DNA from: a virus
Lineage: Duplodnaviria > Heunggongvirae > Uroviricota > Caudoviricetes
IMG/VR virus record: IMGVR_UViG_2698536484_000026
Strand: one strand, 5' to 3'
Length of the DNA: 64,000 bases
Of the stretch, positions 1 through 10,086 are shown piece after piece. The translations under genes were made by a program, and so were the position numbers. Under the pieces are notes generated by a model. It ran no database searches. It was given only the letters and a program-made list of their open reading frames with translations, and had not been told where the DNA came from. Each line of letters starts with the position of its first letter. Positions within the stretch are counted from its first letter, which is position 1.

Positions 1-34
1 TCTCTCAATAAATGCAAACTCACACAATGAATAA

Positions 35-1165
35 GTGGTTACTTATCTTTGTGAGGTTTTTGTGTCACTCCTTTTGAATCGTGAGCATACGAACGGTCAG
101 GTAACAAACGCATCGTATGCAAAAGTTATTGAGACGGTGCTTAAAAGCGGCGTGCAGGCTGATGATCGCACAGGCACTGGTACTTTAAGCACCTGCTACG
201 TTCCCTCTTACTACATGCTTACTGGTGGGACTGTGCCGCTTATTTCTGGAAAGGCGGTAAATCTTAAGCCACTACTTGTCGAACTTGAGTGGTATCTGAA
301 AGGCACGGGTAACATTCAATTTCTCAAGGATAACGGCGTTAAGATTTGGGATGCATGGGCCGATGAGAATGGCGATTTGGGGCCAGTTTACGGTAAGCAG
401 TGGCGTCGATGGGAAGATACCCGCATCGTGAGCCATAGTGAATATCTGAGCAAGATCGCTACTTTCCGTGAACGCGGGTACAAAGTCGAGGGATACCTAG
501 GTATCAGTGAAGATCGCGTAGTGCTGTCCCGTGAAATCGATCAGCTACAGCGTATTGTCGATACACTGCGCACGAACCCTACCGATCGTCGCATCATGCT
601 TAACGCATGGAACGTAGGCGAGCTTGAGGATATGAAACTGCCACCTTGCCACTTTGTCTTCTCTTTGTGGAGTCGTGAGCTTGATTTTGAAACCCGTTTA
701 ACGATGGCAACTGACATTGGTCTTCAACACAGTCGCCTCGGTTACGAGTCTATCTACACCAAGATGCTATACGATCTGGAGATGGACGGCAGTGTTACTG
801 AAGCTGAACTGGATGAACTTGGAATCCCCAAACGCATCCTCAACTCCTGCCTCGTACAGCGTAGCGTAGACACTTTTGTTGGTATGCCATTCAATATTGC
901 TGGTTATGGCATTCTCACTCATTTTCTCGCGAAGATTACGGGTCACATGGCCGGTGCCTTTGTGCATTTTGGCTTTGACGTGCATTTGTACAATAACCAC
1001 ATGGAAAGTGTGTGTGAGCTAATGAAACGACAGGCTCCAGAGCATTCAGATCCGGTCGTTATTTTCCCTCATGAATGGTCTGAGCTGGATGATTTCAAAT
1101 GGGACGATATTCTGATTCTTGGCTATGACCCTCTACCGTGGATCAAGGTTCCAGTGGCGGTGTGA
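35..1165 (+). CDS. thyA: Thymidylate synthase family protein (ThyA-like, two insertions; GTG start uncertain)
   Basis: Motifs DRTGTGT, GPVYGKQWR, NAWNVGELEDMKLPPCH, QRSVDTFVGMPFNIAGY, HLYNNH align to ThyA; 376 aa vs about 264 aa for E. coli ThyA. Confidence 0.7.
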   Translation: MVTYLCEVFVSLLLNREHTNGQVTNASYAKVIETVLKSGVQADDRTGTGTLSTCYVPSYYMLTGGTVPLISGKAVNLKPLLVELEWYLKGTGNIQFLKDNGVKIWDAWADENGDLGPVYGKQWRRWEDTRIVSHSEYLSKIATFRERGYKVEGYLGISEDRVVLSREIDQLQRIVDTLRTNPTDRRIMLNAWNVGELEDMKLPPCHFVFSLWSRELDFETRLTMATDIGLQHSRLGYESIYTKMLYDLEMDGSVTEAELDELGIPKRILNSCLVQRSVDTFVGMPFNIAGYGILTHFLAKITGHMAGAFVHFGFDVHLYNNHMESVCELMKRQAPEHSDPVVIFPHEWSELDDFKWDDILILGYDPLPWIKVPVAV

Positions 1166-1166
1166 T

Positions 1167-1580
1167 ATGGCAAGAGGTATGTATGTCTTATGCGAAATTG
1201 AAGGTGTGCTGGCAAATACCAGCCATCGTAAATCTGTATTTGACGCGGATGCAGGCCAGCTCATTGCCGGTGATGACCTCATTTTCCCCACCAGCCGTAT
1301 GTTGCGTGGTTTTGCTCGCTCAGGGGCTGAAGTGGTGCTTATCAGTAGCCGCTCTGAAACTCTTGAAGCGCCCACTAAACGATGGCTGAAAGATTTTGGT
1401 GTTGATTACGACTGGCTTCATCTCGTACCGAATGGCATCAGTTATGAGAAGCATATTAAGCGCACATTAGCGGAGCATAAAGGCGATCTGCTTATCGCTG
1501 CGCTGGTGCACGATCCTCGACTCCGTGCCGCTTTAGCTGACTCTCATCATAGACCGGTCATCTATGAGGTGGGCAAATGA
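1167..1580 (+). CDS. Hypothetical protein, coupled between ThyA-like and DHFR genes
   Basis: ATG at 1167 right after thyA-like stop; 3' end overlaps DHFR start (ATGA); no recognisable motif. Confidence 0.4.
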   Translation: MARGMYVLCEIEGVLANTSHRKSVFDADAGQLIAGDDLIFPTSRMLRGFARSGAEVVLISSRSETLEAPTKRWLKDFGVDYDWLHLVPNGISYEKHIKRTLAEHKGDLLIAALVHDPRLRAALADSHHRPVIYEVGK

Positions 1581-2053
1581 AGATGATAGCTGCTGTTGGC
1601 CGTAATTATGAGATCGGTATAGCGAACGAACTGCCCTGGCGTTGCTCTACCGATCTGAAGCTATTTAAGAGACTCACCAAAAACGCCACTGTCGTTATGG
1701 GACGTAAAACGATGGAAAGTCTCAAACGCCCTCTTCCAGAGCGTCATAATCTCGTTTTGACGCGCTCTCATGGCTTTGTACCAAATGGATTCTACCCTGC
1801 TGGTGTGGATGATGTGTTGCGATTACCAGAGCCTGTGTGGGTGATTGGCGGGGAACAAATTTACTCGCTATTCATGCCGCATGTTGAAGAGATTTGGCTC
1901 TCCCACATCGGCGTTGATGTACCAAACGCTGATGCATTCTTCCCGGCAAGCATGATGCGTAACTTAGGCTTTGTGTCTGTTGAAACAGCTTATACCCAAC
2001 GAGCCAGCGAGGAAGAGCCTGGCTTTTCGCAGATCGTATACAGAAGGTCGTAA
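1577..2053 (+). CDS. folA: Dihydrofolate reductase
   Basis: MIAAVGRNYEIG...LPW, VVMGRKTMESL, PLPERHNLVLTRS, VIGGEQIY match DHFR signature regions. Confidence 0.75.
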   Translation: MKMIAAVGRNYEIGIANELPWRCSTDLKLFKRLTKNATVVMGRKTMESLKRPLPERHNLVLTRSHGFVPNGFYPAGVDDVLRLPEPVWVIGGEQIYSLFMPHVEEIWLSHIGVDVPNADAFFPASMMRNLGFVSVETAYTQRASEEEPGFSQIVYRRS

Positions 2054-2697
2054 TGGATTACCGGATTGGGATCACTGGTGCTCAGGGCAGTGGGAAAACA
2101 ACCCTGGCTAAATATATCGACAAACATTACGGAATCCCTTACGTGGATGCTGGTGTCGGAAGTTTGATGAGCCGCCTCGGTGTTCGAGTAGGTGAGTCTA
2201 TGCCTCTATATGAGCGGCTTCAGATTCAAATGGAAATAGCAAAGCACATAGAGCTACTTACGCGTGGTGTTGAAGGCTTTGTTATCGATCGCACACCTGC
2301 TGATGTTATGGCCTACACGTTGGATTTGGTCGGCCATACAAATGAAGAGCGGTGTATTGAGTTAGCCCTCGATATCGAAAAGTTTTGCCACAAAACTGCC
2401 ATTTCAAACTTTAACGCCATTGCTGGCTTACGCCCGGGAGTCGCTCTCTCAGAGCGAGATTACTTGCGATCACAACGAGCATCATTAGACCGTCTGTATG
2501 TTGCTCGTATTGATGCGTTGATGTGCGGGGAACTGACAAAAATTCACCTGCATCCGCAAAGGGGAGATCTGCAAACCTTCGTCGTTTCCAACCGATATCG
2601 CACGGTTGAAGCAAGAGCCAGATCAGTGATGAGAATGCTAGATAACGCTGTAGAAAAGATAGAAAACCGGTTCTGTGGCCGAGTGACCGTTCATTAG
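2053..2697 (+). CDS. P-loop nucleotide kinase (putative dNMP kinase)
   Basis: Walker A GITGAQGSGKTT at N-terminus; sits in nucleotide-metabolism cluster. Confidence 0.5.
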   Translation: MDYRIGITGAQGSGKTTLAKYIDKHYGIPYVDAGVGSLMSRLGVRVGESMPLYERLQIQMEIAKHIELLTRGVEGFVIDRTPADVMAYTLDLVGHTNEERCIELALDIEKFCHKTAISNFNAIAGLRPGVALSERDYLRSQRASLDRLYVARIDALMCGELTKIHLHPQRGDLQTFVVSNRYRTVEARARSVMRMLDNAVEKIENRFCGRVTVH

Positions 2698-2758
2698 AAA
2701 TTGTTCGCCTCTTCTACATTGCGACAATAAAACTCTCAAAATGGGTTAAGGATAAAAA

Positions 2759-3178
2759 ATGTTTAGTGAAATGTTGCTTGAAGATGAACTGGATCGGAAA
2801 ACAACAGAGGCTTTGATTCGTGTAGCGGACGAACATTCCCGGTCGCTTATGAGCGATCGAGAGGCTCGTCTGGCTATTCGTGCCATATTCGAAACTGCGC
2901 AGGGGCTTGTTGGTACACAAGTGGGTGAAGCCATTAACATCGCCATGTCTCAGTTCAGTGAAGGCAGTAAAAAGCCTCTGTTTCCTATGCATTTGATGCT
3001 GGCTGGTGGCACGGTGCTTTATATCTCTGTTTGTCTGGATAGCAACCAAATCAATATTCTCAACACTGTGTCAGGTAAGTGGAAAGATCCGATTGTCTGT
3101 GAAACCAGTGAAGAAACTTTGAAAAAAGCGGCTCAATTTGTACGTAGCGCACTACTTAAGGGCGCTAAGAAGTTGTAA
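2759..3178 (+). CDS. Hypothetical protein
   Basis: ORF with AGGA-type RBS context, same strand as operon. Confidence 0.4.
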   Translation: MFSEMLLEDELDRKTTEALIRVADEHSRSLMSDREARLAIRAIFETAQGLVGTQVGEAINIAMSQFSEGSKKPLFPMHLMLAGGTVLYISVCLDSNQINILNTVSGKWKDPIVCETSEETLKKAAQFVRSALLKGAKKL

Positions 3179-3187
3179 GGAGTAGTA

Positions 3188-3982
3188 ATGGGACAACCGG
3201 TAGACATAACAGGTAAACGTTTTGGAAAGTTGGTTGCACTTAAATATTCCGGTATTTCAAACAAACAAGGGCGACTTTGGGATTGCATCTGCGATTGCGG
3301 CAACACCTGCCTGGTTAGTTACGGGAAGCTAAATCACGGGGCGACAATATCGTGTGGCTGTGTCTACAACGCACATCGCCGTAGCGTAAAGCCTCATGGT
3401 ATGAGTAAAACGCCAATTTATCGTATATGGCTGGGTATGCGGGAACGATGTGAAAAACCAACCCATCACGCCTATAAGTGGTATGGCGGCCGAGGTATCA
3501 AAGTCTGCGAGCGGTGGCAAATATTTGAAAACTTTTATGCTGACATGGGAGAGCGACCAGAGGGGATGTCTCTTGATCGCAAAGATGTGAATGGTGACTA
3601 CGAACCTGAAAATTGCAGATGGGCGACTTTTGAAGAACAGGCCAATAACACGCGTTCAAACTTAATTTTGGAGCATAAGGGGGAAAAGCTGACTCTCTCA
3701 CAATGGGCTAAAAGAGCCGGGATTCAGACATCAACTCTTCACTATCGAATCAAGAAAGGGTGGCCATTAGATCGCGCGCTTAACGCCAGCGTCGACACGT
3801 ATGCCAACCGAGATAGTAAGCGTCTGATCGAGTGTCGCGGCAGAACTCAGCGAATTACCGAATGGGCTAGAGAGGTTGGCTTGACTGCGACCATTATCTC
3901 GCAGCGAATTTTGAGGGGGTGGGATGTTGAAGCTGCCATCTTCACACCGTCCAAACGACCAGTAAAAGGAGATAAAAAGTGA
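3188..3982 (+). CDS. HNH endonuclease (phage homing-endonuclease type)
   Basis: YRIWLGMRERC and NGDYEPENCRWATFEEQANNTR motifs typical of phage HNH endonucleases. Confidence 0.65.
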   Translation: MGQPVDITGKRFGKLVALKYSGISNKQGRLWDCICDCGNTCLVSYGKLNHGATISCGCVYNAHRRSVKPHGMSKTPIYRIWLGMRERCEKPTHHAYKWYGGRGIKVCERWQIFENFYADMGERPEGMSLDRKDVNGDYEPENCRWATFEEQANNTRSNLILEHKGEKLTLSQWAKRAGIQTSTLHYRIKKGWPLDRALNASVDTYANRDSKRLIECRGRTQRITEWAREVGLTATIISQRILRGWDVEAAIFTPSKRPVKGDKK

Positions 3983-4527
3983 TTGCTACAGGGGTGGACA
4001 TCGAATCAACAGGTCTTGATTTCCTCTCAGGCCATAAAATCATTGAAATCGCAATGGTGAAGTACGAAATTGAGACACAGACAATGGTTGATAGTTTTGT
4101 AATGCGGTTCAACCCGCGTCGCAGTATCGATCCGAAAGCGCAAGCGGTACACGGCATCAGTCTTGAAGATTTAGCCGCCGAGCCGTTACTAGCCGATCAC
4201 GCTTCATCTGTCGCTTCGTATCTCTCTTCTTCCGATATTTGGATAGCCCACAACGGCGAAGCGTTCGATATTCCGTTTATTAGGCATGAGCTGAAAAGTT
4301 ACGGTTTTTCGCTTCCAGACATCCCATTGATTGACACTCTATTTTCCCTGTGGGCCACAGAAGACGGTAAACGTCCCCGCCTTGAAGAGTTGGCCTTCTC
4401 TCTTGGCTTTATATACGATCATGCCAAAGCACATAGTGCCTTATATGACACAAACTTAATGATGCAATGCTTCTTTAAGGCACGTAATAAGTACGGATTT
4501 TTTAAATTACCCTCTGAAATTGTGTAA
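3979..4527 (+). CDS. DnaQ-like 3'-5' exonuclease (DEDDh)
   Basis: Exo I DIESTGLD, Exo II IAHNGEAFDIPFI, Exo III HSALYDT. Confidence 0.7.
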   Translation: MIATGVDIESTGLDFLSGHKIIEIAMVKYEIETQTMVDSFVMRFNPRRSIDPKAQAVHGISLEDLAAEPLLADHASSVASYLSSSDIWIAHNGEAFDIPFIRHELKSYGFSLPDIPLIDTLFSLWATEDGKRPRLEELAFSLGFIYDHAKAHSALYDTNLMMQCFFKARNKYGFFKLPSEIV

Positions 4528-4533
4528 AACAAA

Positions 4534-4570
4534 AGCCTACTTTAAAAAGTTTAAAGTAGGCTTTCTTTTA
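4534..4570 (+). terminator. Rho-independent terminator-like hairpin
   Basis: agcctacttta/taaagtaggct stem followed by T-rich run. Confidence 0.5.
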
Positions 4571-4685
4571 AAGAACAGTCGCCTTTCAATCATTTCCTGC
4601 CTGTATTTAATACTTTTCCGCCTGATAGGTTTAGTCAAAATGTAGCCATCGAAACGCAAATGCAACTAAACAGAAGGAGACTTAC

Positions 4686-5495
4686 ATGAGTTCGGTTGAA
4701 AATGTAATGACAAATGATGATCTGGATGAGCTGACAGCCATGTTGCAATCACTTGATGAACCAGTAAAAAAAGCTGCACAGGTTGAAAATACTGATGATA
4801 TTGACGATCTGCTTCTCGGCCTCGATGCTGGCGTAGCCATGAGTTCTGATGATGTTGCCGAAGAACTGTTCAATGAAGAAAAAGCAGGTGATTTCAGCTC
4901 CGCTTTAAATGAGTTGGAGTTAGCTCATGAGCCTATAAACGTAATTAAGGCTGAAAGTGTTGAATCTGCCGAAAACGAGCCAGAACAATTGGGATTTATT
5001 GAGGTTGAAGAGTGTGTTGAGGTTAATGATGAATTAAAAGTTCAACAGTCAAATGATAGCAATACAAATAAAAAAGCTCGTACTGCAAGAGGTCCTCGTT
5101 TTACTTTAAGTGATAAAGATTATTTGTTTTTCAATAAAGCAGGCTTAGAAAAAGATATTTTCTTAGACGCTTACGAAAACGCGCCTGTCAAAGCAAAGGA
5201 TAAGATATTAAACCTTCTTAATTGGTTTAGCGGAGGTCCAGATATTAGTGTTTACACGGTAATTTCCATGAGACACCTTCTCACAGAAAAGAAGGCTACA
5301 AGTAATAGTATTAAGATTGCTTTAATGAGCAATCCAGAAAAACCGTATCCGCTTAACACTGCGTCAACTCAGGCTGGGCAAATGATGGCTGTATTTCCAG
5401 CTACAGGAATTGCTGTTAGAGACGGTGGAAATCTAACATTGAACGAAGAATCACCGATCGTTAAGAAGTTTGTCGCGGAGTACACTATTGGATGA
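4686..5495 (+). CDS. Hypothetical protein with highly acidic N-terminal half
   Basis: About 120 aa D/E-rich N-terminus, basic C-terminus; RBS GGAGA upstream. Confidence 0.45.
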   Translation: MSSVENVMTNDDLDELTAMLQSLDEPVKKAAQVENTDDIDDLLLGLDAGVAMSSDDVAEELFNEEKAGDFSSALNELELAHEPINVIKAESVESAENEPEQLGFIEVEECVEVNDELKVQQSNDSNTNKKARTARGPRFTLSDKDYLFFNKAGLEKDIFLDAYENAPVKAKDKILNLLNWFSGGPDISVYTVISMRHLLTEKKATSNSIKIALMSNPEKPYPLNTASTQAGQMMAVFPATGIAVRDGGNLTLNEESPIVKKFVAEYTIG

Positions 5496-5570
5496 CGTTC
5501 CCCTACTGAAAATAAAGCCCATAGAGAGCTTTATAGTGCTGGGTAAGCTAACCCATACCCAGCACCACAA

Positions 5571-5616
5571 AAACGCGCCAGAGAGCTTCTTGTTCGCATT
5601 TCTGGCGCGTTTTATT
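5571..5616 (+). terminator. Rho-independent terminator
   Basis: cgcgccaga...tctggcgcg stem followed by tttta. Confidence 0.5.
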
Positions 5617-5677
5617 TGATTGCCATACATAAAATCAAATGCAAAAATAGGTAATCACTTACCTATCGAGAAAGAAG

Positions 5678-6271
5678 ATGATTGCAGCCGAAAAAATCAA
5701 ACAGCGAAAGCGCGACAACTCTCTTCGTGACCTCTGGAGAACACCTGATTGGCTGTTTTCTGCCATTCAACGTTATCTTGGAGTGACATTTGATGTTGAC
5801 GTTGCCTGCAACAAGGACAACGCAAAGCTGCCTAATTTCATAGGCATTGAGCGTGATGCTTTGAAATCTGAATGGGGACAGCCAGGTACAATTGCCTTCC
5901 TCAATCCACCCTACTCCAAAATCTCCCCCTGGATTGATGCTGCTATACGTGAGCAGGCTCGCGGAGTTACAACAGTGATTCTAATTCCTCAATCCCTCGA
6001 TACAAAGTGGTATGAGCGTGCAACAGAGTATGCGAATGAGACGATTATTCTGTCTGGTGGCCGCGTAGCGTTTGTCGAGCCTGACGTCAATTTGGGTCAG
6101 GTAGAAGTAAACATCAACCCCGGTGGCAGTATGCTCGTTGTTTTTCGAGGATTCTGTCAGGACGCTGGGCACTCTATAAGCAAGATCCCTTTGGACGTCA
6201 TGAAAAGTCTGGGAGGGTATGATCCTGCGAATGTGGTCAGGAAAAAAAGACCATCAAAGAAGGCTGCTTAG
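5678..6271 (+). CDS. Phage Dam-like DNA N6-adenine methyltransferase
   Basis: DLWRTPDWLF and LNPPYS motifs. Confidence 0.7.
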   Translation: MIAAEKIKQRKRDNSLRDLWRTPDWLFSAIQRYLGVTFDVDVACNKDNAKLPNFIGIERDALKSEWGQPGTIAFLNPPYSKISPWIDAAIREQARGVTTVILIPQSLDTKWYERATEYANETIILSGGRVAFVEPDVNLGQVEVNINPGGSMLVVFRGFCQDAGHSISKIPLDVMKSLGGYDPANVVRKKRPSKKAA

Positions 6272-6292
6272 TTTGTTCTGGCGTCTGTAATT

Positions 6293-6351
6293 AGCCTGCT
6301 TCTGTATATATAAATAACTACATATTAATTATTAATATACGGAAGCAGGCT
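6293..6351. repeat. Large inverted-repeat element (copy 1 of a conserved element)
   Basis: Perfect 10-bp arms AGCCTGCTTC / GAAGCAGGCT around a 39-nt AT-rich loop containing CTGTATATATAAATAA; repeated at 37413-37461. Confidence 0.5.
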
Positions 6352-6456
6352 GTTTTGTATCAGAGACTCCAGACCTGAACATCACTACAGAATCCACTAG
6401 AACCCTTCCCAGACGCTTTAAAATCGATTTTATGAACCACTTTAAGGAAAACTAAC

Positions 6457-6687
6457 ATGCCATACCCGACCAATGTTGTTGCGCTCGTAGAGAGCGATTT
6501 TCTGGCTAAGGCTCGTGAAATGATGAAAGATCGCGAGCAGGCTTTCAACTTGTACGAATGGGCAATTAAGTGCTTGCATCTTGGGGAGCATCGCGAACTT
6601 GTTGAACAGCTTTTAGGTGAGTTGATCAACGAGGTGTTTGCCTTGAATGTTCAACTACATGGTCGAGAAAATAATCAATCGAAATGA
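6457..6687 (+). CDS. Hypothetical small protein
   Basis: ORF with RBS-like AAGGAAAA upstream. Confidence 0.35.
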   Translation: MPYPTNVVALVESDFLAKAREMMKDREQAFNLYEWAIKCLHLGEHRELVEQLLGELINEVFALNVQLHGRENNQSK

Positions 6688-7271
6688 TAGATAAGTACAA
6701 ACTATTCATAAGATGAATTGTAAGTGCTAAGATCTGATAGTTTCCAGTCGTAGACTGGAGACTCGACCTGATGGGTGGGGGTAAGCGTCACTGGCGTCAG
6801 GTTTAAAAAAGTTCACTACCAGCGTAGAACCGGTGCCGTTTAGGTGTCGGGGAAGGGGGAACCAAAGTGAGCGGAGACAAGGGTCACTTTATGATTGTCG
6901 AGTCTGGGGTGTTTCGAGAGGTTGAATCCAGTACTCCCCTTCATAAAGTGTGGGAAGATCTCGGTTCTGGGGTGCTGTCATCCATAACTTCCCAAGTCTA
7001 AGCTGGCAGTAGACTTAGACCATAACTTTTCAGGTTATGAAACGACCAGGTTGGTGAGGGATTTTTATACTCACCTCCCTGGGAGAGTATTACCTGAAAA
7101 GACAACCTCTCACTTCGTTCGAGGTGAACTTCACTCACTTCGTTCGTTCAGTTCAGGTTTATAAAAACCTGTTCTGGGAAGTAATTTGTTTATTTTAATA
7201 ATTATTAACACGCACGCGTGTGCGCACGCGCGAGGAAAAAAATCGGCGCGGCGCTTGATTCAGGAGTTTAT

Positions 7272-7865
7272 ATGACGACGAAGACACCAGCCCGATCGCA
7301 AGCAAAAACTCGCAAAAAAGCCAAAAACAAAAATTCTCCCCGCACCAATCCCACAACGCCTGTCGTAGAGTTCAATCCCCAGCTTAAAACCGTGAAAATC
7401 TTCAGTGATGGCTCTTGCCTTAAAAATCCGGGTGGCCCGGGCGGTTACGGTATCGTTCTTCAGTATCGTGGAGAGGAACGCGAGTTCTCAGATGGTTTTC
7501 ATAGCACCACCAATAACCGCATGGAGATGATGGGGGCACTTATCGGGCTGGAGCGTTTGAAATATCCATGCAACGTTATTTTACACTCTGATAGCCAGTA
7601 TCTGAAAAACGGCATGACACAGTGGATGAAATGGTGGAAACGCAATGGATGGATGACTTCTGACAAAAAACCGGTAAAGAATGTTGATCTGTGGAAGCGT
7701 CTGGATGAGGCCGCAAGTCGACATAATGTTCGCTGGAAGTGGGTTAAAGGTCACGCCGGGCATCGTGAAAATGAAATATGTGATCGACTCGCGAAGATCG
7801 CAGCTTTTTCAGCAGCAGATATGCCTCACAAGAAAGATATTGGTTTTGTTTATAACAAGCGGTAA
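7272..7865 (+). CDS. rnhA: Ribonuclease H (RNase HI-like) with basic N-terminal extension
   Basis: [52 protein letters not shown] match RNase HI. Confidence 0.75.
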
Positions 7866-8010
7866 GTAAGTGTTTACCTATCATTTTAAATCATGTATCT
7901 TATCGGCGTCAGGATGACAATGTGTCGGTAAGACACAGTTCCAGGATGGAACGAGAAAGGCGGCTGGCAATCGCCAGCCGCAACTCTTTCTGACACTGGA
8001 TGGAGTCCAC

Positions 8011-8505
8011 ATGGCACGTCAAACCTATTTCACTTCTGCAACTAAACGTCCTCGTTCTTTACGTCAAATTTTGGCCGAATTATTTAGCGGTCGTGTTATG
8101 TCACGTCTTGATGAACTAGAGACTACCGTTCGGTTGCTGAATGAACGTTTAGATAATCAAGCGTCAGTTGTTGCGAACGTGGGGGCGATTGTTGCCTCTG
8201 GTTCTTCACGCGAAGCGAAAAGTACACGGCCTTTAGTGAAGGAGAAAAACAACAAGGACAGTTCGAATGGAAAATTTTCAAAGAAAGAGGCTGAAACCAA
8301 TGGCCTACGTTCTCATTATAGTTTCACTGGCGACGGTAGCCGTTCCAGCCGGCCAGAGCCTTTTGATGCCGGATTCATCCATCACCACACCTTCGTCGAC
8401 GACAATTACCACCACTCCAGTGGAGCGTCCTGTCACTCTGGATGGGATGGCGGTGGATGCGATACCTCAAGTTCATCCAGTTACTCAGGATCATGCTGTG
8501 ACTAA
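8011..8505 (+). CDS. Hypothetical protein (C-terminal part questionable; overlaps next ORF in another frame)
   Basis: Good RBS and coiled-coil-like N-terminus; C-terminal 60 aa looks like out-of-frame low-complexity translation. Confidence 0.25.
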   Translation: MARQTYFTSATKRPRSLRQILAELFSGRVMSRLDELETTVRLLNERLDNQASVVANVGAIVASGSSREAKSTRPLVKEKNNKDSSNGKFSKKEAETNGLRSHYSFTGDGSRSSRPEPFDAGFIHHHTFVDDNYHHSSGASCHSGWDGGGCDTSSSSSYSGSCCD

Positions 8506-8518
8506 GGCGGTTGTATGA
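8267..8518 (+). CDS. Small membrane/secreted protein
   Basis: Hydrophobic segment MAYVLIIVSLATVAVPA; stop overlaps next start (ATGA). Confidence 0.35.
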   Translation: MENFQRKRLKPMAYVLIIVSLATVAVPAGQSLLMPDSSITTPSSTTITTTPVERPVTLDGMAVDAIPQVHPVTQDHAVTKAVV

Positions 8519-8703
8519 ACTGGTTTTCAAATCACTTTGGAAAAATTTGGCTGGCAATTCTTGCCCTCATGGCCGCCGGTTGGGTATCGAACATTATAAA
8601 ACTTGTTTGCTCTGGCGATCTCCAGTTTCAGGCTGGCATGACCTTGGCTCGTGTAGTTGGGATTTTTGTTTTTCCAGTTGGTTCGGTACTTGGTTATTTC
8701 TGA
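8515..8703 (+). CDS. Small membrane protein (two hydrophobic segments)
   Basis: IWLAILALMAAGWV and VVGIFVFPVGSVLGYF hydrophobic stretches. Confidence 0.4.
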   Translation: MNWFSNHFGKIWLAILALMAAGWVSNIIKLVCSGDLQFQAGMTLARVVGIFVFPVGSVLGYF

Positions 8704-8796
8704 CGGCTGTTAGTGCATATGCATTGACCATCTCTGCGTAAGCAATTTATGTAATTAGAAAACAACTTGTTTTGACAAATAATAAAAGGAAAACAC

Positions 8797-9222
8797 ATGT
8801 TAGGTTTCTTCAAAAAGAAAACTCGTAAAGCTGTTATCGAAGTCAAAAAAATGGAGAACCGTGATGCGGTTGAGGCCACCGTGTGGGGCGCGTACATGAT
8901 CTCCTATGCCGACGGCACATGTGACGCAAAAGAAATTGCCATTCTTGAGAAGACAATTGCAGCTCTGCCTGCGTTTTCTCCGTTTGCTGGTGAAATTGCC
9001 CAAATGAGCGCCAATATCCGTGCTCGTTACGAAGCGTCCCCTCGTTCTGCTAATGCACAGGCTATTCGTGAGCTGTCTGATATTGCGGGTACTCCAGAGG
9101 CGGTCGATGTTCTGTGTCTGTGCCTTGATATTGCCGATCAGGACGGCATTGGTGAACAAGAAGAGCAGGCACTGAAAAAGATCGCCCAGGCGCTTCAGTT
9201 GTCACTGGATGCTTATCTCTAA
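8797..9222 (+). CDS. TerB-like domain protein (tentative)
   Basis: YADGTCDAKEIAILE...DIADQDGIGEQEEQALKKIA resembles TerB-fold pattern; preceded by AAAACAA-N-TTGTTT motif. Confidence 0.45.
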   Translation: MLGFFKKKTRKAVIEVKKMENRDAVEATVWGAYMISYADGTCDAKEIAILEKTIAALPAFSPFAGEIAQMSANIRARYEASPRSANAQAIRELSDIAGTPEAVDVLCLCLDIADQDGIGEQEEQALKKIAQALQLSLDAYL

Positions 9223-9381
9223 TGCTTGAGAGATTCCGGCTTGTGATCGTCATTGCTCTTCTGGTGATGGCGGTGTTGGTGGATTTTACGGGAAAGATGA
9301 TGTCTGTCATTTCTGATGGCGTCCTCATTGGTTTGGCGATCTACTTCGCTTATCCGTTAGTTCGTAAAGCAAAGTGCTAAT
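9223..9381 (+). CDS. Small hydrophobic protein (52 aa)
   Basis: Mostly hydrophobic; ATG abuts previous stop; followed by terminator hairpin at 9383-9403. Confidence 0.3.
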
Positions 9382-9519
9382 GACAAGGGCCAAATGGCCC
9401 TTGTGTTTCGTTGACCGAAATAGAGAGTTTGCACCTTTACGTTTAGCTTGCTCCCCTTTTATGCCACATCACAATAAAGCCAATAAGAAAACAACTTGTT
9501 TAAGCATTAGGAAAAACAC

Positions 9520-10086
9520 ATGTGCAAGAAATGCAAAGCGATAGCTGATGAACAAAACGCCTTATTCGAAGAAATGGATGCTAATGAACTGGTCAAAATG
9601 TTAGCCATTCTTCGAGGAATAGAAGACGTTTCCATATTTGAGAGAGTGGTTACAGCACTTAATTATGAGTCCGCCTTTGAAGAGCCAACTCAGATTGTAG
9701 CTTTAGCACATCATTTCGGTGTTCATTATCTTGCTGAAAAAGAGAGAGCTGATAAGTTGCAAGCGACTTTGGATATGGTGAGCGAGACTCAAGGATCTCA
9801 TGACGGTAATAAAAGTGAGACGATTATTGCCAGCAAAGATCGTGAAATTGCCGGGCTTAAATCCTCTCTAACGATGTTGATGTCTGCAATTAACCTTATG
9901 TCTTCTAAAGCAGGTTATAAAATGCCATCACTAAACAGCGACGATCCGATGGCCGTTCGCCAGCTTTTAGGTGCAATGGCCGACCAGCTCGACGACACAA
10001 AGAGTCGCCTTGAAGACATGATGCGGGAGCTCACGCATCGCCATGACTTGAATAAGCAGCCGCACAAAACGCAATACGCACTCTAA
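9520..10086 (+). CDS. Hypothetical protein
   Basis: ORF preceded by conserved AAGAAAACAACTTGTTT motif and RBS; terminator hairpin 10104-10119 after it. Confidence 0.45.
   Translation: MCKKCKAIADEQNALFEEMDANELVKMLAILRGIEDVSIFERVVTALNYESAFEEPTQIVALAHHFGVHYLAEKERADKLQATLDMVSETQGSHDGNKSETIIASKDREIAGLKSSLTMLMSAINLMSSKAGYKMPSLNSDDPMAVRQLLGAMADQLDDTKSRLEDMMRELTHRHDLNKQPHKTQYAL

Follow-up and report, generated by a model that had tools for sequence, protein, structure and literature searches.

The thyA-like gene at the start of the window (the whole 64,000-nucleotide stretch of viral DNA that we analysed, IMG/VR record IMGVR_UViG_2698536484_000026) very probably encodes a working classical thymidylate synthase (TS) within the nucleotide-supply module of a phage-plasmid, and its two large internal inserts would leave the chemistry unaffected. 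Neither the gene nor its neighbours nor the element is new: all have been catalogued from pHCM2 (2002) onward, the gene under a routine thymidylate synthase annotation, and thyA, dhfR and nrdAB of pHCM2 and pLF82 have been listed previously in the literature. We found no published description of the inserts, and the searched literature contained neither an enzyme assay nor a nucleoside analysis of any two-insert ThyA. A structure or deletion study of this widespread phage and phage-plasmid lineage, with its two conserved inserts, would tell something new about a textbook enzyme. Coordinates of all features are collected in Table 1.

Table 1 Positions of the thyA gene, its motif and inserts, and the neighbouring genes in the window.
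Feature	Position	Strand	Basis
thyA, classical (ThyA-type) thymidylate synthase, 367 aa	62..1165	+	PF00303, TIGR03284, AF2 model
Insert 1, residues 119-155, +34 aa, replaces E. coli 103-105	416..526	+	HMMER alignment breaks, anchor distances
PPCH motif: catalytic Cys196 (E. coli Cys146), His197 (His147)	641..652	+	Invariant in 56 ThyA sequences
Insert 2, residues 204-260, +51 aa, replaces E. coli 154-159	671..841	+	HMMER alignment breaks, anchor distances
HAD/PNKP-phosphatase-like protein, 137 aa	1167..1580	+	PF25109 (below cut-off), phrog_5387, Pnkp1 (4xrp)
Dihydrofolate reductase, DfrA51 type, 158 aa	1577..2053	+	PF00186 (120 bits), NF047324; ATGA overlap upstream
P-loop kinase, dNK/TMPK fold (AAA_28), 214 aa	2053..2697	+	PF13521, phrog_2107; TAATG overlap with dfr

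Gene start and family assignment

The program-made list of open reading frames opened the gene at an alternative upstream start, GTG 35, giving 376 aa, whereas GTG 62 appears the likelier start on the sequence. A GAGG lies 5-9 nt upstream of GTG 62, the related phage PhiR41_1 has an ATG at the equivalent codon and an annotated length of 1104 nt, RefSeq matches in E. coli cover 62..1165 exactly, and homologues in the databases have a length of 367 aa. Because the gene would begin at 62, its excess over E. coli ThyA is 103 aa (367 vs 264 aa), somewhat less than the approximately 110 aa given in a preliminary description of this DNA. That description was right in reporting a ThyA-family reading frame with two large internal insertions, followed further on, on the same strand, by a dihydrofolate reductase (DHFR) and a P-loop kinase.

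The translated protein scored far above the cut-off of the Pfam family PF00303 (266.7 vs 24.3 bits) and of the TIGR03284 equivalog model (223.3 bits vs a curated cut-off of 108.35), and matched phrog_160, 'thymidylate synthase', with 321 bits. Four NCBIfam ThyA equivalog models, including NF002497 (265 vs 327 bits), NF002499 and NF002496, stayed under their cut-offs; these models are narrower, and the shortfall probably arises because the inserts split the alignment. The protein aligned to E. coli ThyA with 44% identity, and its AF2 monomer model (pLDDT 94.5) matched the E. coli enzyme in Foldseek with a TM(target) of 0.94 (E 3e-30).

Conservation of the active site

We aligned 56 ThyA sequences, canonical 264-aa enzymes included. 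R21, K48, E58, I79, W80, W83, Y94, R126, R127, L143, C146, H147, R166, S167, D169, F176, N177, H207 and Y209 (E. coli numbering) were invariant. All dUMP ligands (R21, R126′, R127′, R166, S167, D169, N177, H207 and Y209) are present together with the catalytic PCH cysteine, as are the folate-binding and hydride-transfer residues E58, I79, W80, W83, Y94, L143 and F176, and the C-terminus, KVPVAV, keeps the closing PVA(I/V). The Cys (PPCH), Tyr and Asn recognised earlier are thus retained along with every other TS active-site residue. Positions 147 and 177 of the E. coli enzyme are His and Asn here (His197 and Asn278), which are the uracil-specific states (PMC8670742).

The E. coli enzyme (PDB 2TSC, 1TYS) accordingly shares all catalytic, dUMP-binding and folate-binding residues and the C-terminus with the window protein; it differs in lacking the 34 additional residues at 103-105, the 51 at the 154-159 hairpin and about 15 more at the N-terminus. 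Judged from sequence and predicted fold, we consider the protein a true thymidylate synthase rather than a base-modifying variant: the preference for this reading in the preliminary description is borne out by the retained TS residues, the TIGR03284 score and the structural match to E. coli TS.

Organisation of the nucleotide-supply module

The gene lies in a tightly packed module ordered nrdA, nrdB, MazG-like, thyA, HAD-like, dfr and kinase; the same order occurs in SSU5, Cyrano, and Providencia and Photobacterium relatives. From thyA to the kinase, the genes are 1 nt apart at the first junction and overlap at the next two (ATGA, then TAATG), and we saw no promoter-like site inside this four-gene run. 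The DHFR gene had been placed directly next to thyA: it does belong to the same operon-like run, but a 137-aa HAD-like gene, missed earlier, lies between the two and starts 1 nt past the thyA stop. ThyA chemistry yields dihydrofolate, and a DHFR is needed only when dihydrofolate is made. The presence of a DHFR in the same operon therefore indirectly supports the assignment as thymidylate synthase, and the use of this neighbour as an argument gains from its belonging to a family experimentally shown to be functional.

The HAD-like protein scored slightly under the PF25109 cut-off (25.9 vs 27.6 bits). Its motif I reads EIEG instead of DxDG and aligns with DLDG of Pnkp1 (4xrp), so that the DxD pair is absent; relatives carry EIEG, EIDG/EIDN/EIDD or TIDG, with DLDG only in the Photobacterium member. 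Because DxD is replaced by ExE, the protein is unlikely to be a dTMPase; to go by its motif, a protein without the catalytic aspartates may serve as a non-enzymatic partner.

The kinase retains the conserved motifs GAQGSGKTT (Walker A P-loop) and DRTPxD. Its AF2 model (pLDDT 88.7) found deoxyadenosine kinase, dNK and TMPK as best Foldseek matches (TM ~0.55-0.65, E ~1e-5 to 1e-6). The match to phrog_2107, 'thymidylate kinase' (E 2e-10), is a weak hint at the substrate, and the kinase reached the cut-off of no NCBIfam model.

Taken as a pathway, ribonucleotide reductase (NrdA, NrdB) would supply deoxynucleotides, and dUMP would probably come from the MazG-like NTP pyrophosphatase. ThyA would convert dUMP and methylene-tetrahydrofolate to dTMP and dihydrofolate, the co-translated DHFR would regenerate tetrahydrofolate, and the dNK/TMPK-like kinase would probably carry dTMP, or thymidine, onward. 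The module as a whole would thereby raise the amount of dTTP available when the element replicates.

The thymidylate synthases of SSU5, pHCM2, pLF82 (Cyrano) and Klebsiella ST13-OXA48phi12.3-type elements share 77-99% identity and the same 367-aa architecture, and these elements share the order thyA, HAD-like, dfr, kinase. We found no substantial difference between the window enzyme and these proteins, which are already annotated as thymidylate synthase.

Structure and distribution of the two inserts

In the AF2 model, analysed with DSSP, insert 1 is predicted to enlarge a small hairpin to a sheet of three strands plus two short helices (pLDDT 90-98), and insert 2 to place three helices at the tip of a beta-hairpin (pLDDT 96-98). 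All 60 PDB TS matches listed break into three stretches, and none aligns across either insert; against solved TS structures, Foldseek gave TM(query) values of at most 0.71. The inserts had been described as lying near the dUMP-binding region, which is correct in the linear sequence only: insert 2 falls between Cys196 and Arg267/Ser268, the residues where the hairpin starts and ends, but in the modelled fold it sits at the hairpin tip. The inserts would thus form conserved surface sub-domains, one a sheet plus helices and the other a three-helix unit, on loops away from the active-site residues.

The small-domain region of L. casei and eukaryotic TS accepts inserts without a change in chemistry. 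The 50-aa insert of L. casei and eukaryotic insert 1 both map to the interval between residues 84 and 88 of the E. coli enzyme. The site of our insert 1 is also occupied by a small eukaryotic insert, which comprises only about 8 aa; for the 154-159 hairpin, no insert-bearing characterised TS is known to us. We considered an L. casei-type insert and rejected it, since the spacing at E. coli 84-88 was unchanged in the window ThyA and in all measured homologues, and the site is therefore a different one.

Both inserts were present in 64 of the 112 measurable top homologues, jumbo-phage enzymes included, and a single insert in 10 and 3; shared ancestry may be partly behind this excess. The jumbo-phage enzymes (SPN3US; Erwinia phages Machina and Huxley; Pseudomonas phage 201phi2-1) are ~38-41% identical to the window ThyA, carry inserts at the same two sites and gave the best structural matches across the inserts (TM(query) 0.83-0.85, BFVD). 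Their insert lengths differ, and the 201phi2-1-type enzymes are longer still (457-471 aa). The inserts would mark a phage-associated ThyA lineage that the window element has in common with SPN3US-like and 201phi2-1-like jumbo phages.

Constraint on the inserts and their possible role

We compared the window with SSU5, a pair in which synonymous sites are near saturation, and obtained pN 0.035 and pS 0.63 for insert 1, pN 0.125 and pS 0.83 for insert 2, and pN 0.057 for the thyA core. Purifying selection on the two inserts matches, or nearly matches, that on the core. The insert-edge motifs DTR(I/V)V, RGY, SRELxxxxR and LDxxxIPxR are kept down to 40% identity.

Protein-protein contact or dimer stabilisation is the most likely role that we infer for such surface elements. 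A more specific proposal, which we put forward tentatively and with clear reservations, is that the inserts are docking or regulatory modules of the phage ThyA lineage, for example in a dTTP-synthesising complex or an altered dimer; partners in such a complex might include the co-translated DHFR, the kinase and the degenerate HAD-like protein. If true, the family would amount to a phage-specific thymidylate synthase with a distinct structure.

A similarly doubtful possibility is that the enzyme is a normal TS whose inserts are lineage-specific decoration, with a role limited to folding stability rather than interaction or regulation. Several results are in keeping with this: the inserts range widely in size from one homologue to the next (site 1, 16-42 aa; site 2, 29-74 aa), and alignment between clades is poor in the central part of insert 2. 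Searched alone, insert 2 had no match among Pfam and PDB sequences, and among 1.84 billion representatives it returned essentially itself plus two short, multi-stretch, spurious-looking matches, which leaves no homologue outside ThyA; insert 1 alone had no match in Pfam. Within 5 kb of the two-insert thyA, no DHFR was annotated or detected at three loci (SPN3US and two metagenomic jumbo-phage-like contigs), and the gene surroundings there are unlike the SSU5 module, so that a constant partner did not emerge. Mere decoration is harder to reconcile with the pN values of the inserts relative to the core, with edge motifs conserved across such divergence, and with the inserts occurring together far oftener than singly, the last possibly in part through shared ancestry.

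The companion DHFR and trimethoprim

The DHFR exceeded the curated cut-off of the NCBIfam DfrA51 resistance model NF047324 (335.2 vs 322 bits) and is 90% identical to SSU5 DfrA51. The SSU5 protein is a functional DHFR that binds trimethoprim weakly, and when cloned it raised the trimethoprim MIC to 256-512 mg/L (PMC12217456), whereas the DHFR from the SSU5-like plasmid of E. coli O104:H4 (CP003298) gave an MIC of only 2 mg/L (PMC7725336). Published trimethoprim phenotypes thus conflict within the DfrA51 clade.

These data raise the alternative that the thyA-dfr pair is kept chiefly for the benefit of the host, through an antifolate-insensitive thymidylate cycle yielding trimethoprim-tolerant lysogens, rather than as an aid to replication. 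We regard this as unlikely. The model score and the high MIC of the cloned SSU5 enzyme speak for it, but the window allele is 90% identical rather than identical to that tested protein, the O104:H4 homologue conferred little, and the pair sits within a replication and nucleotide-supply module (nrdAB, exonuclease, RNase H), as in lytic phages. This alternative bears on what selection favours and is compatible with the enzymology. The DHFR of the window falls into the DfrA50/51 group, a name introduced recently, and is carried by an element found in ~4% of complete E. coli genomes.

Comparison with pyrimidine hydroxymethylases

The preliminary description had also allowed for a variant producing a modified pyrimidine, and we therefore aligned the window protein with SPO1 gp29 (dUMP hydroxymethylase) and T4 gp42 (dCMP hydroxymethylase) as well as E. 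coli ThyA. Identity was 20% to gp29 and 23% to gp42, against 44% to E. coli ThyA. The two hydroxymethylases belong to the same superfamily and share the catalytic Cys and several dUMP-phosphate ligands, but lack most TS folate-binding and hydride-transfer residues. Neither has DRTGTGT, the Trp80/Trp83 pair or the C-terminal PVA(I/V), all of which occur in the window ThyA; both lack PCH (PCN in gp29), gp42 also lacks Asn177, and neither carries insert 1 or insert 2. In overall length gp29 is similar (383 aa, ~120 aa longer than ThyA), but what it has in excess extends the C-terminus and is not inserted internally. Hydroxymethylase identity was rejected on motifs, identity and the location of the gp29 extra length; the hallmarks of these enzymes are absent from the window protein.

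Cytosine-specific ThyA homologues carry Asp in place of Asn177 and an altered residue 147 (PMC8670742); the window enzyme keeps Asn278 and His197 at these positions, which excludes a cytosine specificity of the T4 gp42 type. A gp29-type function agrees no better with the low identity and the retained TS motifs, and over the 48 kb covered in the Cyrano record, which is 98% identical, the annotation showed no companion genes for dTTP depletion or hypermodification, whether 5-HMUDK, aGPT-Pplase or glycosyltransferase.

In 5-hmdU phages, a dTMPase and a dNMP kinase accompany a ThyA homologue (PMC8989533), and because the HAD-like protein and the kinase here loosely resemble that pair, the gene set alone does not single out a thymine pathway. 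It is nevertheless highly improbable that the enzyme is a dUMP hydroxymethylase or other pyrimidine modifier, with the HAD-like protein clearing dTMP, the kinase phosphorylating the modified nucleotide and the DNA containing modified thymine: what favours it is the length of gp29 and the phosphatase-like gene and kinase flanking thyA, as in the 5-hmdU phages, whereas the sequence comparisons above, the ExE motif of the HAD-like protein, a translationally coupled DHFR in the same operon (hydroxymethylases release tetrahydrofolate and need none) and the residence of the element as a plasmid in E. coli genomes all stand against it.

Identity and spread of the element

By its sequence, the window is an SSU5/pHCM2/pLF82-type phage-plasmid of E. 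coli. The Escherichia phages Cyrano, PhiR41_1 and CMS-2020a are 98% identical to it, and SSU5 is related. An HNH endonuclease gene further downstream in the window is absent from Cyrano and PhiR41_1. The gene, annotated "thymidylate synthase", was carried by 230 of 5,426 complete E. coli genomes, in which the element is present as a plasmid, and it was also found in 403 PLSDB plasmids.

Start, length and inserts of the ThyA homologue

Between the two candidate starts of thyA, GTG 62 is better than GTG 35, because GAGG lies 5–9 nt upstream, the related phage PhiR41_1 carries ATG at the corresponding codon of an annotated 1104-nt gene, RefSeq annotations span exactly 62..1165, and database homologues are 367 aa long. 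The HMMER alignment of this 367-aa query with E. coli ThyA was split into three blocks, which, together with anchor-distance measurements, placed two internal inserts (Table). With these and ~15 further residues at the N-terminus, the query is 103 aa longer than the E. coli enzyme. The preliminary description was thus right about the large insertions and the greater length, although its excess of about 110 aa was slightly high.

Table. Features of the thymidylate region
Feature	Window coordinates	Strand	Length	Details
thyA, mechanical ORF	35..1165		376 aa	start GTG 35
thyA, preferred start	62..1165		367 aa	start GTG 62
Insert 1	416..526		+34 aa	residues 119-155; replaces E. coli 103-105
Insert 2	671..841		+51 aa	residues 204-260; replaces E. 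coli 154-159
HAD/PNKP-phosphatase-like gene	1167..1580	+	137 aa	between thyA and dfr
dfr (DHFR)	1577..2053	+
P-loop kinase	2053..2697	+	214 aa	Walker A GAQGSGKTT; conserved DRTPxD
HNH endonuclease	3188..3982		264 aa	phrog_374, E 2e-79
Dam-type N6-adenine DNA methyltransferase	5678..6271			PF05869, E 4e-37

Thymidylate synthase or base-modifying homologue

As judged from sequence and model, the query is a true ThyA in a known thyA-dfr nucleotide module. Methylating thymidylate synthases (TS) are told from hydroxymethylases by the residues that bind folate and close the site. An alignment of 56 sequences, from SSU5-type proteins through canonical 264-aa bacterial ThyAs, revealed invariant R21, K48, E58, I79, W80, W83, Y94, R126, R127, L143, P145-C146-H147, R166, S167, D169, F176, N177, H207 and Y209 (E. 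coli numbering); the Cys (PPCH), Tyr and Asn reported earlier are all present, and the C-terminus reads KVPVAV versus KAPVAI in E. coli. Among these kept features are those needed to bind folate and to close the site so that hydride can be transferred. The query exceeded the PF00303 and TIGR03284 equivalog cut-offs, its best PHROG match was PHROG 160 'thymidylate synthase', and an AlphaFold2 model derived from the alignment (mean pLDDT 94.5) superposed on E. coli TS with a TM of 0.94 relative to the length of the E. coli chain.

The alternative raised beforehand, a variant making a modified pyrimidine, was evaluated by aligning the query with SPO1 gp29 (dUMP hydroxymethylase, 383 aa) and T4 gp42 (dCMP hydroxymethylase). 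The query sides with ThyA, at 44% identity to the E. coli enzyme versus 23% to gp42 and 20% to gp29. The DRTGTGT phosphate loop, the Trp80/Trp83 pair and the TS C-terminus are missing from both hydroxymethylases. In gp29 PCN replaces PCH, and gp42 has Asp at position 177; the extra length of gp29 is a C-terminal extension of ~120 aa and does not come from internal inserts. In a metagenomic association study, positions 147 and 177 separated cytosine-modifying homologues from TS (PMC8670742); the query holds the TS state at both. No hypermodification gene, such as a 5-hmdU DNA kinase, aGPT-Pplase or glycosyltransferase, was found in the 48 kb of Cyrano annotation read, and near the thymidylate module the only gene for DNA modification observed was the Dam-type adenine methylase a few genes downstream. 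A modified-pyrimidine synthase therefore has essentially no support, and the thymidylate synthase favoured from the outset is upheld by its residues, family cut-offs, fold and DHFR context: coupling DHFR to a ThyA homologue is sensible only if dihydrofolate is made, which implies a reductive methylase.

Conservation and structure of the two inserts

We measured inserts in 112 of the 120 best matches: both were present in 64, insert 1 only in 10, insert 2 only in 3, and neither in 35. The inserts are not peculiar to the window element; holders comprise SSU5-like elements of Salmonella, Klebsiella, Enterobacter, Raoultella, Providencia, Morganella, Xenorhabdus and Photobacterium, together with SPN3US-like and Erwinia jumbo phages (38–41% identity). 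Jumbo-phage enzymes such as that of 201phi2-1 were the best viral structural matches spanning the inserts (TM(query) 0.83–0.85).

In the model, the small hairpin that follows Trp101 (E. coli numbering) is extended by insert 1 to three strands (117-124, 141-146, 152-159) plus two short helices. Insert 2 makes the Cys-strand hairpin longer and contributes three helices (209-225, 231-242, 247-253), all insert strands and helices having pLDDT 90–98. Insert 2 sits at the distal tip of this hairpin, the first strand of which starts at Cys146 and the second of which ends at Arg166, and so should, from TS topology, be remote from the active site. Purifying selection acts on both inserts: when the window is compared with SSU5, synonymous differences approach saturation (pS 0.63–0.83), and non-synonymous differences are 0.035 in insert 1, 0.125 in insert 2 and 0.057 in the core. 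The edge motifs DTR(I/V)V, RGY, SRELxxxxR and LDxxxIPxR are kept down to 40% identity.

No solved TS covering either insert was found, the 60 listed PDB sequences all aligning in three pieces, and Foldseek of the query model against solved TS gave a TM(query) of at most 0.71. Insert 2 searched alone returned no Pfam, PDB or other homologue. The well-known insert of L. casei and eukaryotic TS, at E. coli 84-88, differs in site, as spacing there is unchanged in the query; insert 1 shares the site of a short eukaryotic TS insert. The two inserts, conserved across a broad lineage of phage ThyAs and structurally uncharacterised, pose a minor structural question and do not amount to a new system.

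Operon organisation and neighbouring enzymes

The thyA and HAD-like genes are 1 nt apart, the HAD-like gene and dfr overlap at ATGA, and dfr and the kinase gene at TAATG; no promoter-like site was found inside this run, and terminator-like matches there were no more frequent than in shuffled sequence. The DHFR described as adjacent is separated from thyA by the HAD-like ORF, which had been overlooked. Directly upstream of thyA, PhiR41_1, SSU5 and Cyrano carry nrdA, nrdB and a MazG-like NTP pyrophosphohydrolase. The order nrdA, nrdB, PRA-PH/MazG, thyA, HAD-like, dfr, AAA_28 kinase, small ORF, exonuclease also recurs in a plasmid-sized contig from Providencia and in a relative from Photobacterium with a ThyA only 50% identical to the query. 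This run is a deoxynucleotide-supply module.

The window DHFR, which shares 90% identity with its SSU5 counterpart, scored 335 bits on the NCBIfam DfrA51 model (cut-off 322). Expressed and purified, the SSU5 enzyme had an about ten-fold lower affinity for trimethoprim than that of E. coli, and its allele raised the MIC to 256–512 mg/L (PMC12217456). The allele of an E. coli O104:H4 plasmid gave 2 mg/L (PMC7725336); the published phenotypes of the DfrA51 clade thus disagree.

The P-loop kinase noted previously was recovered, and occurs only in SSU5-like elements. Its model (pLDDT 88.7) is closest to deoxyadenosine, deoxynucleoside and thymidylate kinases (TM 0.55–0.65). Either dTMP or thymidine is a plausible substrate. 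Aligned to the Pnkp1 phosphatase domain, the HAD-like protein has EIEG at the catalytic DLDG; motif I in its family is EIEG, EIDG/EIDN/EIDD or TIDG, with DLDG only in the Photobacterium member, and most members have therefore lost the nucleophile aspartate. An ordinary phosphatase is unlikely on this motif, and the gene may be a pseudo-phosphatase under selection inside the thymidylate operon.

Database annotations of the thyA-dfr-kinase module are inconsistent. In Cyrano (OV696614, 12631-15266) the ThyA-family gene is labelled 'ThyX Thymidylate synthase', and the HAD-like gene 'polynucleotide kinase'; the kinase is an 'ABC transporter ATP-binding protein' in that record, an 'AAA family ATPase' in PGAP and a 'dephospho-CoA kinase' in one source.

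On one side of the HNH endonuclease gene lies the conserved small ORF, on the other the gene for the DnaQ-like exonuclease. The HNH gene has the look of a free-standing homing endonuclease that inserted here. Cyrano and PhiR41_1 lack it at this place, with the flanking genes adjacent and window 1-6500 covered only 82%, and Klebsiella GArcari phage-plasmids carry it at 94.7% identity.

The element and its distribution

The window derives from an SSU5/pHCM2-type phage-plasmid, because its first 6.5 kb align at 98% identity with Escherichia phages CMS-2020a, Cyrano and PhiR41_1 (Salmonella phage SSU5, 76.5%) and the remainder contains the kinds of replication, partition and tail genes that such elements usually have. 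Cyrano equals plasmid pLF82 (E. coli LF82, NC_011917) in length, at 108,379 bp. Phage-plasmids carrying this module are very common: the 2.7-kb region was present in 403 PLSDB plasmids (Escherichia 195, Enterobacter 87, Salmonella 49, Klebsiella 28, Citrobacter 25, others), and thyA, annotated 'thymidylate synthase', in 230 of 5,426 complete E. coli genomes, plasmid-borne at 232 of 234 places. The module was already known; according to PMC12928451, citing Kidgell et al. 2002, pHCM2 and pLF82 gene lists since 2002 include thyA, dhfR, nrdAB and rnhA. In Photobacterium CP071326.1 (2.03 Mb record) the nrdAB-thyA-dfr-kinase-exonuclease module lies at 1569-9715 of a 2-Mb replicon rather than on a ~100-kb plasmid; this relative of the SSU5-type element may therefore be integrated or borne on a chromid.
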